Source: an uncultured Desulfomonile sp. (lineage in GTDB: Bacteria; Desulfobacterota; Desulfomonilia; Desulfomonilales; Desulfomonilaceae). Taken from it: 64,000 nucleotides of DNA. The DNA lies in the NCBI GenBank assembly GCA_964542775.1, contig CAZIVV010000010.1:1-64000 (forward strand). Reading direction: 5' to 3'. Below, in pieces: positions 28,569 through 47,090 of this stretch. The translations under genes were made by a program, and so were the position numbers. The number at the start of each line of letters is the position of its first letter. Positions within the stretch are counted from its first letter, which is position 1. The notes under the pieces are model-generated. The model did not search any database and was not told the DNA's origin. It worked only from the letters and a program-made list of their open reading frames with translations.

Positions 28569-30209
28569 CTACATTTTGAGACGCTCTCTAAGATTGGAGG
28601 CCCTGTTACTGTAAGCCGCGGCTTTCTCAGTCTTGCCAAGGGCTTCCCAGCATCTTGAAAGATTTTCAAGAACAGTCAGGACCAATGGCTCTTCAACCCG
28701 TCCTGTAGATTCCAGACGACTAAGAGCCAATTCAAACCAGCAAATAGCAGTCCTAAAACTGCTCTTGTTGTATTCTTCCTCACCTCTGAGGTTGAGATCC
28801 TCTGGAGGCCATGAGGAATACTGACGTATAATAGATGCGCAGGGATCCTGAGGCGGCACAGTCTGAGTAACTATTTCCGGAGGTTCTATCTCAGTTACGA
28901 CTGGCACAGGCTCACTGATTCCCACAATGGCGATGGGAGGCCAGGGTCGTCTCCACCAAGGCCTTATCCAGGGAGGCCTGGCTCTCCACCAAGGCCACGG
29001 TCTGGCCCATGGAGGTCCCCATCTCCACCACGGGGCGCCCCATCTAGCCAAACCTCGACCCGGGCCGATGATTCGACCTCCCGGACCAACTACCCGAATG
29101 CCTGGTCCTACAATCCTACCCCCCGGTCCAATAATTCTTCCTCCCGGACCGATGATTCGACCTCCCGGACCAACTATTCTGGTTCCTGGACCAATGATAC
29201 GTCCGCCAGGACCTATGATTCTTCCTCCAGGCCCGACTACACGCCCGCCAGGCCCTATGATTCGACCACCGGGACCAACAATTCTGGTTCCTGGACCAAT
29301 GATACGTCCGCCTGGTCCAACAATTCTTCCTCCTGGTCCTACAATCCTGCCCCCCGGACCAACAATTCTGGTTCCCGGGCCAATGACACGTCCACCTGTT
29401 CCGGTTGTGCGCCCACCGCTTATAACCCTACCGCCAGTGATCCTTCCACCACCGGAGCTAATTATTCTTCCACCTCCGATTTGGCCTGTTCCGGTTGTGC
29501 GCCCACCTGTGCTTATGATCCTGCCTCCACCTCCCGATATCACTCTACTTCCACCTGTGCGCACTCCAGTTGTTGTTGTGGCGCCACCCAGGCGTCCACC
29601 GCTGGTGGTCGTTATTCTCCCACCACCTGTTCGAATGCCACCCGTCCTTATGGTTCCGCCTGTTGCTGTCCTCCCACCTGTAGCGCTTATGACTCTGCCA
29701 CTTCCAGTTCGGGAGCCGCCCACAACGACTCTGCCAGAGCCTCCTGAGAAGCCTCCAGTGCGGATGGTATGAGATCCTCCACTACGGCCACTGCCCGTCC
29801 TGATTACTCTTGAGCCACCAGTTCTGACGCCGCCAGTTCGAACGGTAGGGGTTGAACCGACGCGAACGCCACCCGTCCTTATTGCCCTGCCGCTACCCGC
29901 TCTGGATCCGCCAGCGCTGATGACCCGACCACCACCGGCTCTGCCGCTACCGTAACCAATGCTTCGACCGGCGCTGAATCCGGCTTGTCTGCCACCGTGA
30001 CCAAAACTGCGACCGCCTCCTCTTGGGCCATAGTCAGCAAGGGCAGAGGACTTTTCATTTTCCGTCACTGTTCGATTTAACTGTGGCTTCAAATCGGTGG
30101 CCGAGGAATTTGAGTCGGCTACAGTTGGACAGGGACAGAGAATCATTGCAAGGATTATGGCCAAAAGTAAGGCGTATTTAGTATCCCAGAAAACCAAGAA
30201 AGGATTCAT
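28569..30209 (-). CDS. Exported Gly/Arg-rich tandem-repeat protein with a Trp/Arg/Pro-rich segment and a small C-terminal helical domain
   Basis: A signal peptide is followed by about 250 aa of R-T/S-G-G type repeats and then about 15 GPGGRI(I/V) heptads. After these comes WGAPWWRWGPPWARPWPWWRARPPWIRPWWRRPWPP, and the last ~130 aa form an alpha-helical domain. Codon usage and frame are consistent. The plus-strand ORF 28927..29772 is its Pro-rich mirror. Confidence 0.6.
   Translation of the reverse strand: MNPFLVFWDTKYALLLAIILAMILCPCPTVADSNSSATDLKPQLNRTVTENEKSSALADYGPRGGGRSFGHGGRQAGFSAGRSIGYGSGRAGGGRVISAGGSRAGSGRAIRTGGVRVGSTPTVRTGGVRTGGSRVIRTGSGRSGGSHTIRTGGFSGGSGRVVVGGSRTGSGRVISATGGRTATGGTIRTGGIRTGGGRITTTSGGRLGGATTTTGVRTGGSRVISGGGGRIISTGGRTTGTGQIGGGRIISSGGGRITGGRVISGGRTTGTGGRVIGPGTRIVGPGGRIVGPGGRIVGPGGRIIGPGTRIVGPGGRIIGPGGRVVGPGGRIIGPGGRIIGPGTRIVGPGGRIIGPGGRIIGPGGRIVGPGIRVVGPGGRIIGPGRGLARWGAPWWRWGPPWARPWPWWRARPPWIRPWWRRPWPPIAIVGISEPVPVVTEIEPPEIVTQTVPPQDPCASIIRQYSSWPPEDLNLRGEEEYNKSSFRTAICWFELALSRLESTGRVEEPLVLTVLENLSRCWEALGKTEKAAAYSNRASNLRERLKM
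29058..29395. repeat. Tandem array of about 15 imperfect 21-nt repeats encoding the GPGGRI(I/V) heptad
   Basis: Plus-strand unit CC(N)GGNCCNAYNATNCGNCCNCC. Copies differ mainly at wobble positions, so the peptide is conserved while the DNA has diverged. Confidence 0.8.
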
Positions 30210-30367
30210 GACTGCTCCACCTCCAGGTCACCGGAAAGCGCAAATGAATGTCAAACGATCGTAAAACTCTCCTGTGACCGAATAAATCTGACCAGGAATC
30301 TGAATGGAACGCCTACTGTCATGTGTGCAGCAACTGTGATCTGTAGACAGTTGGAACGACTTTTGTC

Positions 30368-47000: not shown

Positions 47001-47090
47001 GCCAGCATAAGGAAAGCGGGTTTTGAACATCCCTTTTTCTGGTCCGCATTCGTAGTTGTAGGAGATTCTGGTCCAGGCGAGCGACGATGA
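44073..47090 (+). CDS. Exported TPR-repeat + CHAT-domain protease-like protein (paralogue of 36850..40327), with a poly-Gly tract after the lipobox-like Cys
   Basis: Start at MNRSSVEG, with an AAGGAAAA Shine-Dalgarno upstream. Signal peptide, then GGHGGGGGGGGGGFGFG, TPR units, and a C-terminal CHAT domain (VLVMADPVF...VVFATHGDV...ALTACKTGLG). The architecture matches the first CHAT protein, and the C-terminal motifs are near-identical. Confidence 0.85.
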   Translation: MNRSSVEGKSGWPSIWSNHFRVITILLLISVSLCCSPCELYCSSGGHGGGGGGGGGGFGFGINLHINLTPRAPVEEPKMEIPDISDEEEKPRAQRRPVEVIPPRKLTPPRVTYLIELAMDIDKTLFEFARKDPSSAIKFYRNALAQAQKAKDVQEELRACESLGHIYYLTGQFQKGADFYEKAVTLARGLKNPEVLGVTLRNLAAINIAWSNYDEAEELNQEAIKIFQENRSRRSAQMTLNNIAVRDKNRGSFSRAAQTYMAALAADTEENRYQMIILNNLASMFAARGEPLKALDALRAYIDVAQKTGDAVAEGEALMRMAKLQIGMDQSDLALENSKKALEIFYRVGSSPDLAKKVVGDVCLDLGRLKEAEAYLKEADYDSSVGRLNFLRGDLDAARKNYEQLMKSAQKAGNADELFTAYTGLGRVYEAKKNYSQAAQFYNKAVDLTEEMRSQLLLSERQNFFAGKINGFQRSEPSKGLVRVALKQDKSAQSIYPGELTRARAFADTLAQKLDGEFFGIPEEIRENEMRISDKVASLKMSMDAISRDIDGERIREINKQIKAAETERAAFLKSLREKYKDYASIKYPSPVKLETAGLSPSEYALIFDVTSEGVGTTLLRGKKVVSGRFVDWKPDELEKDVLRFQQSINGRNLKAFDVDLAAGFYRKLLEEPLSEVPEGSSVMIIPDGALALLPFESLVMDGKPEWMKGQWGDYPGGLKYVGDVYPIVYVQSLTALTITRAAGEKAKSKSKSPAEFDRVLVMADPVFDKNDPRVQAMDSQPTGEKSSSDQFPKLMVAVEDVINGDSRTIPRLEITEQLAKNLQKVYGEKCDVFTGFQASKKRFIEQVSNQDKKYGTVVFATHGDVSNKESWVLEPVLYMAMLPDRRDGLLTMSEVAGLKLDSEIAALTACKTGLGANLAGEGVMSMGRAFQCAGVKTVLMSLWSVADQSSVMLMEEFFRNIKNGKSKLQGWQDAKASIRKAGFEHPFFWSAFVVVGDSGPGERR

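Follow-up and report, generated by a model that had tools for sequence, protein, structure and literature searches.

A conserved Desulfomonile gene cluster for predicted exported caspase-fold proteases and a serpin, with a possible role in extracytoplasmic function sigma factor signalling

Within 64,000 nucleotides of DNA from an uncultured Desulfomonile sp. (assembly GCA_964542775.1, contig CAZIVV010000010.1, positions 1 to 64,000; this whole stretch is called the window throughout), positions 28569 to 47090 hold ten genes for predicted exported proteins, among them caspase-fold proteases and a serpin. The cluster is conserved in related genomes, the closest copies are headed by genes for a sigma factor of the extracytoplasmic function (ECF) class and its anti-sigma factor, and the window copy has lost this head. 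The best explanation that we can offer, which we hold tentatively and at not quite an even chance, is that the cluster encodes a caspase-fold protease module in the envelope that forms the periplasmic arm of an ECF signalling circuit. The original prediction, an earlier reading of the same DNA, had proposed an envelope protease system with a dedicated inhibitor, and in this it was largely right. Nearly all work on bacterial caspase-fold proteases has dealt with cytoplasmic defence or cell-death systems; DdvA is the only characterised periplasmic CHAT protein, and its trigger and cleavage are still hypothetical.

Every domain that had been named on the ten proteins was confirmed by Pfam, which gives two C14 peptidases, two tetratricopeptide repeat (TPR)-CHAT proteins, three DUF4384 domains, a serpin, two OmpA-like domains, an ankyrin-repeat protein and a Gly/Arg-repeat (G/R) protein. 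The features are as follows.

41821..42807, minus strand: TPR and OmpA-like protein, predicted exported (TPR-OmpA; Pfam OmpA 2.5e-16, plus TPR)
40382..41824, minus strand: Peptidase_C14 followed by DUF4384 (C14-DUF4384; Pfam C14 4.6e-15, DUF4384 1.4e-12)
36850..40341, minus strand: TPR-CHAT protein (CHAT1; Pfam CHAT 6e-50, profile positions 3-289 of 289; many TPRs)
35490..36614, minus strand: DUF4384 and a conserved C-terminal domain of about 150 aa, Xc (DUF4384-Xc; Pfam DUF4384 4.9e-21)
33914..35347, minus strand: DUF4384 followed by Peptidase_C14, derived variant (DUF4384-C14; Pfam DUF4384 2e-20, C14 7e-14)
32516..33829, minus strand: serpin (Pfam Serpin, PF00079, 1.7e-107, profile positions 2-370 of 370)
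31685..32476, minus strand: OmpA-like protein with a Pro/Ser/Gly-rich tail (Pfam OmpA 1.3e-14)
30368..31600, minus strand: ankyrin-repeat protein (Pfam Ank_2 5.5e-75)
28569..30209, minus strand: G/R protein with a weak TPR at its C-terminus (translation and Pfam)
44073..47090, plus strand: second TPR-CHAT protein, divergent (CHAT2; Pfam CHAT 3.5e-47)
43690..43959, plus strand: truncated DUF3160 remnant, 89 aa (tblastn to the DUF3160 protein of related locus L016)
42808..43689, no strand: stretch free of open reading frames where relatives have the ECF sigma gene, anti-sigma gene and ECF promoter (list of open reading frames, similarity searches)

The conserved cluster and its ECF sigma head

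In the metagenomic contig L001 (ENA contig_62699), the same genes occur in the same order as in the window, with protein identities of 80% for C14-DUF4384, 79% for TPR-OmpA, 69% for TPR-CHAT, 62% for the OmpA-like protein, 61% for DUF4384-C14, 60% for the C-terminus of the G/R protein, 53% for DUF4384-Xc and 47% for the serpin. Synteny at the DNA level with L001 and L013-L017 extends from window position 42690 down to 28570 at 66-75% identity and ends there, a recurrence of gene order that is far beyond chance. In at least six other genomes, the arrangement and make-up of the cluster are preserved, with protein identities of 47-80%; the genes form a conserved functional unit, as the original prediction had supposed, and the P0007 contig repeats the run DUF4384, DUF4384-C14, serpin and OmpA. 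The alternative that these are unrelated neighbours in a fortuitous combination of domains, for which one could cite gaps of up to 235 bp and a single gene overlap, is scarcely credible: the synteny effectively refutes it, fusions join the components (C14-DUF4384, DUF4384-C14, C14-Ank, Ank-serpin), and ordinary serpins taken as controls have no such neighbours. In L001 itself the ankyrin (e.g. 12233-13464), DUF4384-Xc, TPR-OmpA and G/R genes are broken by frameshifts (5932-8355 is also cited), most likely through assembly error, as the near-identical L017 has most genes intact.

The distribution of the cluster was assessed by scanning one genome per species with an alignment of the C14-DUF4384 family. 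The 48 loci returned lie nearly all in Desulfomonile, Desulfomonilaceae, or metagenome-assembled genomes (MAGs) labelled 'delta proteobacterium' or 'Syntrophaceae', and the gene-cluster family is restricted to Desulfomonile/Desulfomonilaceae-type bacteria. Loci were annotated with domain queries drawn from the window, and key cases were confirmed by Pfam. Thirty species-level loci hold a C14-DUF4384 gene, and among these (all counts are lower bounds, since some contigs end early) TPR-OmpA and TPR-CHAT are each found in 22, an OmpA-only protein in 15, a DUF4384-only protein in 14, an ECF sigma and anti-sigma pair in 10, DUF4384-C14 in nine, an ankyrin protein in six, a serpin in four and the G/R-type C-terminal domain in three. 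Because of these counts, TPR-OmpA, C14-DUF4384 and TPR-CHAT make up the conserved core, with TPR-OmpA as its leading gene. The serpin, ankyrin and G/R genes are additions of the window's subclade, as are a DUF4384-only protein, the second C14 protein (DUF4384-C14) and another OmpA-like protein. The C14 family is also strongly expanded within genomes; in a single MAG (CAZCDS01), such C14 genes are found at no fewer than five separate loci (L026, L039, L048, L051, L052).

The gene upstream of TPR-OmpA, in the more distantly related L009-L011 and in the five closest species-level relatives of the window (L013-L017), encodes an anti-sigma factor with a zf-HC2 domain, confirmed by Pfam, one transmembrane helix and a periplasmic domain of about 190 aa. 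An ECF sigma gene, likewise confirmed by Pfam, precedes the anti-sigma gene in all of these loci, and upstream of it stands a full-length, divergent DUF3160 gene. Taken over all related loci, the ECF sigma/anti-sigma feature is present in L009-L011, L013-L018, L024, L035, L039, L042, L045-L047 and L050. It is found in its smallest setting in L045-L047, as triads of ECF sigma factor, anti-sigma factor and exported C14(-Ank): in L046 and L047 a C14-ankyrin fusion directly follows the pair, giving a minimal three-gene version, and L045 has C14 and ankyrin as separate genes in the same position.

A promoter motif accompanies this head. In related loci with a total of 818 kb, the dyad TGTCA-N16/17-[TC]CGAA[TC] has 24 matches, where shuffled sequence gives 2.75; nine of the matches are located upstream of ECF genes, seven are directed towards DUF3160 on the opposite strand at a distance of about 80 bp, and further sites are found upstream of TPR-OmpA (L018), of C14-DUF4384 (L035) and of a second TPR-OmpA unit (L009). 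With an ECF-type promoter upstream of the sigma gene, the protease operon of this subclade is therefore transcribed, as we read it, from an autoregulated ECF promoter. In the intergenic region between DUF3160 and the ECF gene the motif forms a pair, about 80 bp apart on opposite strands, in L009, L011, L013-L017 and L035, and the divergent DUF3160 gene therefore appears to be part of the same ECF regulon.

The window copy is rearranged. We found no similarity to the ECF sigma or anti-sigma genes beside the cluster or elsewhere in the 64-kb window, no match to the promoter TGTCA-N16/17-CGAA in the window, and none to TGTCA-N16-18-CGAA with one mismatch allowed in the cluster's intergenic regions. 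The 883 bp at 42808-43689 contain no real open reading frames (ORFs), and tblastn and blastn comparisons with the ECF/anti-sigma region of the relatives were blank. Next to it, the ORF at 43690-43959 is 41% identical (tblastn) to residues 53-93 of the L016 DUF3160 protein and lies in the expected orientation; by this similarity it is a truncated DUF3160 N-terminus, and it marks the rearrangement. Sigma factor, anti-sigma factor and promoter are lost, the DUF3160 gene is truncated, and all ten ORFs of the cluster are intact, at up to 1163 codons, and full length compared with their orthologues. An operon under an ECF sigma/anti-sigma pair is thus a feature of the relatives and not of the window, and the module is not self-contained, as the original prediction had it: in the nearest relatives it stands under a regulatory head, which links it to an established type of envelope signalling. 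With the head lost, expression and read-out of the ten intact genes would have to follow another route or depend on regulators encoded elsewhere in the genome: either such regulators have taken over, or expression is constitutive, or the cluster is on its way out.

The last possibility, in its strict form, is that the window cluster is a decaying or silent remnant, disconnected by the loss of its regulators and now without function. The missing ECF gene, anti-sigma gene and promoter motif, the DUF3160 gene cut to 89 aa and the 883 bp upstream without similarity to the relatives all fit such a history. It is nonetheless quite improbable in our view, given the ten intact ORFs, the occurrence of identical or 99%-identical cluster proteins in independent assemblies (P0001; P0121), the many related loci that likewise have no adjacent ECF pair, and a strong sigma-70-like site that precedes CHAT2.

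The genes of the minus-strand run are less tightly packed than had been described. The original prediction spoke of ATGA overlaps in the plural; there is one (4 bp, between TPR-OmpA and C14-DUF4384), the remaining intergenic gaps measure 39-235 bp, so that the run may or may not be a single operon. Each of the ten proteins starts with a strongly hydrophobic segment, and none has transmembrane segments of note further along, which makes their export a well-founded prediction. The further description of the serpin as a lipoprotein is weak, as the window protein has ...VSVGC and its orthologues have no Cys there. The genes that flank the cluster are of housekeeping type (a hisF-like gene, an SPFH protein, a diacylglycerol (DAG) kinase and an MMPL transporter).

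The proteases, the serpin and the accessory proteins

Both C14 proteins score above the PF00656 gathering score and have the fold and dyad of the family, with the motifs SGHG...DACHSG in C14-DUF4384 and SGHG...DSCHS in DUF4384-C14. His132 and Cys183 of C14-DUF4384 are invariant in 29 homologues, and SGHG and D[SAC]CH[SA] are conserved in 16/16 copies of DUF4384-C14. In both CHAT proteins PF12770 is matched near full length (6e-50, 3.5e-47) alongside TPR arrays, and the motifs are ATHG and TACQTG in CHAT1, ATHG and TACKTG in CHAT2. The catalytic His and Cys motifs, whose absence would have told against the idea of a protease system, are therefore intact in all four proteins.

Judged by its sequence, C14-DUF4384, the anchor gene of the cluster family, is metacaspase/orthocaspase-like. 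In an AlphaFold2 model (mean predicted local distance difference test score (pLDDT) 77), residues 50-296 form a caspase-type domain and residues 306-406 an all-beta DUF4384, and a disordered loop comes directly past the catalytic Cys. The best Foldseek match to this model is MALT1 caspase-Ig3, over about 410 columns that cover both domains, and lower matches include the Geobacter orthocaspase GSU0716, AtMC9, Yca1, AtMC4 and caspases, with E values down to 7e-14. On the model, DUF4384 is an immunoglobulin (Ig)-like domain placed like the Ig3 of MALT1. In an alignment with Arabidopsis metacaspase-4 (AtMC4), the 'pkD' and 'DaCHSG' positions are each occupied by Asp in C14-DUF4384. We take these positions to be the Arg/Lys-type S1 residues of metacaspases, and the enzyme is predicted to be Arg/Lys-specific from Asp at both. 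Sequence searches with DUF4384, DUF4384-C14 and Xc against solved structures gave no match, and Xc matched nothing in Pfam or the PDB; the DUF4384-Xc gene is present in one or two copies in L001 and L013-L017. Exported proteins with DUF4384 and many PEGA-like repeats also lie 2.7 kb from an ordinary serpin in L124 (1445-3265) and L126 (788-2608). These are probably unrelated, yet they show DUF4384 outside protease contexts.

The second peptidase, DUF4384-C14, varies together with the serpin encoded next to it. We aligned 16 DUF4384-C14 proteins, five of which (window, L001, L015, L017, L024) adjoin a serpin with an Asp in its loop. Three derived states are present in 5/5 of these and in 0/11 of the other copies, including that of L016, whose serpin has no such Asp: the Asp after strand 1, which aligns with the 'vnD' Asp of AtMC4, is replaced by Thr or Ser; the acidic D..DEEDG.DE loop following the catalytic His is deleted; and CHSG is changed to CHSR (CHAR in L015). 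In terms of the metacaspase S1 pocket as we assume it to be, the window protein has Thr at the first Asp position and keeps the second Asp.

The serpin matches the fold profile of its family and has the hinge EEGTQASSTTA, with small residues at P15-P9 of the kind that permits loop insertion. This hinge aligns without gaps with those of PAI-1 and SERPINB1 and conforms to the pattern of its clade, EEGT[QE]A[SA].... Cluster-type serpins form a clade in which the members are just 40-47% identical to the window serpin, and the gene lies immediately downstream of DUF4384-C14 wherever gene context is available. An Asp at loop position 16 past the hinge Glu, followed by x-[LIMV]-S, is present in 9/10 of the clade members with a readable loop, and in 1/86 loops of ordinary bacterial serpins. 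The latter served as controls and were obtained from a metagenome scan with the Asp-loop serpin alignment, which returned ordinary serpins only. In the loop alignment Asp16 falls opposite P2 of PAI-1, before its P1 Arg, and opposite the Phe before Cys in SERPINB1, an inhibitor that presumably uses both Phe343 and Cys344 as P1.

We read the serpin Asp and the three protease changes as co-evolution in which the S1 preference of the protease would have moved off basic residues, and the serpin looks like a cognate inhibitor of the DUF4384-C14 variant. The dedicated inhibitor of the original prediction can thus be assigned, as a partner, to one protease; constant adjacency and co-variation in the S1 region argue for it, as does a C14 or CHAT neighbour in 0/80 of the ordinary bacterial serpin loci. 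No bacterial serpin/orthocaspase pair was found in the literature searched.

The two CHAT proteins have different affinities. CHAT1, whose signal-like N-terminus ends in ALA followed by QQ, is 52-70% identical to orthologues in L001, L013, L015, L016 and L024. CHAT2 has 36% identity to CHAT1 and comes closest to proteins of L036 (50%) and of L029, L027 and L034 (43-45%). By these identities it is the lone member of a different cluster subtype, and not a close paralogue of CHAT1. We also considered CHAT2 as an inverted orthologue of the internal second CHAT protein of L013/L014 and rejected this, as the identity is 40% only and the nearest relatives belong to another subtype. A sequence search of the CHAT domains against solved CHAT structures gave no direct link.

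Among the accessory proteins, 41821-42807 and 31685-32476 score above the PF00691 gathering score, and their OmpA-like domains appear from sequence to be of the peptidoglycan-associated type; in L001, L015-L017 and the P0007 contig, the gene for the latter protein comes after the serpin gene. The ankyrin protein (30368-31600) has a signal-like N-terminus. Some related loci encode exported fusions of C14 to long ankyrin arrays (L047 and L052 by Pfam, L044 and L046 by phmmer), and in an unrelated lineage P0093 (L002-L006), a 556-aa Ank-serpin fusion beside VIT-VWA and ECF sigma genes, is a second, independent bacterial link between serpin and ankyrin repeats. C14-Ank fusions beside ECF/anti-sigma pairs, together with the Ank-serpin fusion, suggest the ankyrin protein as a binding partner of the enzymes.

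The G/R protein consists of GPGGRI[IV] heptads, encoded by 21-bp tandem repeats, a Trp/Arg/Pro-rich stretch that is present in the window, L001 and L016, and a conserved TPR-like C-terminal domain of about 85 aa. In L001 this C-terminal domain is kept at 60% identity, and L016, L027 and L037 have it as well, next to different low-complexity regions, which in L027 and L037 are Gly/Thr/Ser/Asn-rich in place of the Gly/Arg and Trp/Arg/Pro features. The heptads and the low-complexity region are lineage-specific, and the idea of a repeat-rich potential substrate loses its force. We dropped the heptads and the Trp/Arg/Pro stretch as a conserved substrate or antimicrobial precursor, since only the TPR-like C-terminus is kept; it is a minor possibility at most.

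This bears on a defence or conflict role, in which a phage or competitor would set off an envelope protease cascade that ends in death or lysis of the cell or in activation of an effector, for example membrane-active Gly/Arg and Trp/Arg/Pro peptides. Such a role would agree with the expansion of paralogues (at least five C14 loci in one MAG), with accessory content that varies among loci, with a serpin that is the fastest-evolving member (47% identity, against 60-80% for most neighbours), with the shared Trp/Arg/Pro-rich stretch, and with the precedents that DdvA/DdvS controls CBASS/CRISPR and Craspase is a defence system. We nevertheless consider it unlikely: the candidate peptides are lineage-specific, PADLOC gives no significant model beyond generic repeat or OmpA similarity, the cluster contains no gasdermin, nuclease, toxin or other known effector, its flanks are housekeeping genes and not a defence island, and a periplasmic site would be unusual for the sensing of phage.

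Further ORFs lie within or next to this end of the cluster. A 281-aa Pro-rich antisense ORF inside the G/R gene (28927-29772, plus strand) is a by-product of the 21-bp repeats and no gene. Between the cluster and the SPFH gene, 27878-28348 (minus strand) encodes a 156-aa membrane protein with two CxxC pairs and weak zinc-ribbon matches, of which no counterpart adjoins the clusters of the relatives. A 206-aa membrane protein (27016-27636, minus strand) overlaps the start of the SPFH/Band-7 gene (25524-27044, minus strand) in an NfeD-SPFH-like arrangement and is unrelated to the cluster.

The proposed circuit

In the circuit that we tentatively prefer, TPR-CHAT and/or C14 peptidase would cut the small periplasmic domain of the anti-sigma factor (site-1 cleavage), and this cleavage would free the sigma factor and raise expression of the protease operon, a positive feedback through the ECF promoter. 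The arrangement would be a 'split' DdvA/DdvS and would parallel Csx29-Csx30-RpoE. DUF4384 and the ankyrin repeats could act as docking or regulatory modules, and the OmpA-like domains may hold the system at the peptidoglycan. The serpin would be the cognate suicide inhibitor of the adjacent DUF4384-C14 variant, whose S1 site would have shifted from an Arg/Lys-type pocket in step with the Asp of the loop.

The presumed target of cleavage, the periplasmic domain of the anti-sigma factor, has a homologue at the C-terminus of an 805-aa protein in the window, with about 24% identity. A model of the periplasmic domain of that protein (pLDDT 79.5) matches the TolB N-terminal domain, GNA1162 and LpoB at E values of about 1e-4, from which we infer a TolB-N/LpoB-like fold for the anti-sigma domain. 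The 805-aa protein (48218-50635, minus strand) has a cytoplasmic domain of about 620 aa with no Pfam or PDB match, one transmembrane helix and the periplasmic domain; a sequence search of the protein against solved structures gave no match. Its gene is convergent with a DAG-kinase/YegS-like gene (47345-48214, plus strand), and the two are kept together in housekeeping contexts of Desulfomonile/Desulfomonilaceae (L061-L064), the 805-aa family having no annotation anywhere. We rejected the 805-aa protein as a transmembrane output of the cluster, because its family pairs with the DAG-kinase gene and never with protease clusters; that it adjoins the cluster is coincidence. We also dropped the idea that the serpin loop mimics a cleavage site in the juxtamembrane motif YPxGxxPxxIGxSSxxWE of the anti-sigma factors, since this motif is common to the whole domain family and is present in the unrelated 805-aa protein as well.

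The same evidence could be read as envelope maintenance or morphogenesis, with the proteases as sigma-induced effectors that remodel envelope or cell-wall structures, the ECF pair as a regulator only, and the serpin as a limit on collateral damage. The operon has the ECF promoter at its head, and in some loci this promoter lies immediately before protease genes; two OmpA-like domains are of the peptidoglycan-associated type, the fold predicted for the anti-sigma sensor is that of cell-wall and Tol-Pal partners, and the family is limited to one bacterial lineage. A role of this kind is possible but seems improbable to us: there is no identifiable substrate, housekeeping envelope systems are seldom found in several divergent paralogous copies or lost piecemeal, and both the fused (DdvA) and the split (Csx29/Csx30) precedents place the CHAT protein upstream of the sigma factor.

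Several observations limit our confidence in the signalling circuit. With sigma factor, anti-sigma factor and promoter missing from the window, the circuit cannot run there as drawn; even among the relatives, just 10/30 anchor loci have the ECF/anti-sigma pair no more than 10 kb away, and most occurrences of the promoter motif are limited to one subclade. Every functional step is drawn from sequence, models and analogy, and the direction of signalling could be the reverse, with the proteases as mere sigma-induced products and not activators. Export was judged by the single measure of N-terminal hydrophobicity, with gaps that reach 235 bp the genes may not be transcribed as one operon, and the fold model was built on the unrelated 805-aa protein (about 24% identical) and not on an anti-sigma factor. 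For the serpin, Asp16 would be P2 in the canonical 17-residue register and P1 only in a 16-residue register, and the derived protease retains its second S1 Asp (DSCHS), so that a switch to acidic P1 residues is conjectural. The co-variation comes from five loci in closely related genomes, and shared ancestry may account for part of it.

A bolder version of the signalling circuit would be a periplasmic 'caspase cascade'. Partners that carry a DUF4384 tag would be acted on by exported TPR-CHAT and by an orthocaspase of the Arg/Lys type, and a CrmA-like serpin would restrain, and co-evolve with, a DUF4384-C14 enzyme whose preference has switched towards acidic P1 residues. Site-1 cleavage of the anti-sigma factor would be the outcome, and Csx29-Csx30-RpoE and the fused DdvA would both have branched off from an earlier design of envelope signalling with caspase-fold proteases. 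Taken as a whole, this is speculative and unlikely to hold.

Comparison with known systems

The original prediction had stated that no characterised system has this composition, and our searches agree: no family of PADLOC or NCBIfam exceeds its cutoff for the cluster proteins, the PADLOC matches are only to generic repeats or OmpA, and no such system was found in the literature searched, where DdvA and Craspase were also the only cases of an ECF group tied to CHAT or caspase proteins. A gasdermin/protease system is not indicated, as Pfam and PADLOC gave no gasdermin match for any of the cluster proteins. We place the cluster with ECF-linked signalling through caspase-fold proteases, and its C14, CHAT, serpin and OmpA-like proteins are bona fide members of their families.

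DdvA is a periplasmic TPR-CHAT protein fused to an anti-sigma factor, with a proposed role as site-1 protease ahead of RseP cleavage, and DdvA/DdvS controls CBASS/CRISPR defence (PMC11506125). The likeness lies in the genetic coupling of an ECF sigma factor, a single-pass zinc-finger anti-sigma factor and a periplasmic TPR-CHAT with a His-Cys dyad. In contrast to the relatives described here, which have a separate exported TPR-CHAT protein, DdvA carries its CHAT domain on the anti-sigma factor and has no equivalent of three CHAT helices; correspondingly, the window CHAT proteins have a signal-like N-terminus and no zf-HC2. The relatives' anti-sigma factors carry the small, predicted TolB-N/LpoB-like domain instead, the system further includes C14 proteins, proteins with DUF4384, OmpA-like proteins, an ankyrin protein and a serpin, and the regulon is the protease operon and not CBASS/CRISPR; in the window copy, sigma and anti-sigma factor are absent.

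DUF4384 is the C-terminal domain of some Csx30 proteins, which are substrates of the TPR-CHAT protease Csx29, and is often fused to proteases (bioRxiv 10.1101/2022.08.17.504292). The Craspase module of type III-E CRISPR (Csx29, Csx30, Csx31, RpoE) resembles the proposed circuit in that a TPR-CHAT is coupled to an ECF sigma factor via cleavage of a sigma-binding partner, and the DUF4384 of Csx30 C-termini recurs three times in the window cluster. Craspase is cytoplasmic and RNA-guided through Cas7-11, whereas the proteins described here are predicted to be exported, and Pfam, NCBIfam and PADLOC found no Cas7-11, Csx30 N-terminal domain or Csx31, the similarity being to TPRs only. If site-1 cleavage is indeed carried out by these enzymes, they would represent a new protease class in ECF sigma activation and would hint at the origin of the Craspase accessory module.

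The C14 enzymes share their fold and His-Cys dyad with metacaspases, orthocaspases and paracaspases (AtMC4, AtMC9, Yca1, GSU0716, MALT1), and the order of a caspase domain and then an Ig-like domain corresponds to caspase-Ig3 of MALT1. The known enzymes are cytosolic, whereas those of the cluster are predicted to be exported and tethered to the envelope; moreover, in the second C14 protein DUF4384 stands in front, both the first S1 Asp and the acidic loop have gone, and an Arg has been acquired past the catalytic Cys. DUF4384 as an Ig-like caspase partner would link the MALT1-type architecture, the Csx30 C-termini and the exported enzymes of the cluster.

For serpins that cross over to caspase-fold targets, the precedents are CrmA with caspases and AtSerpin1 with metacaspases. 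As in these, a serpin with an inhibitory-type hinge is here genetically paired with a clan-CD cysteine protease, and CrmA, as we assume, has its P1 Asp in the 16-residue register. The present pair differs in being bacterial, predicted to be exported and encoded by adjacent genes, and its inhibition is a prediction; it is a candidate for such a pairing in bacteria, in which the sequence changes of the serpin and of the clan-CD protease match each other. What is original in this cluster is its split, multi-enzyme layout, the proposed cognate serpin and the theme of docking through DUF4384/Ig-like domains. As protease, substrate-like anti-sigma factor, docking domains and inhibitor are encoded by separate genes, in contrast to the fused DdvA, stepwise reconstitution is feasible.

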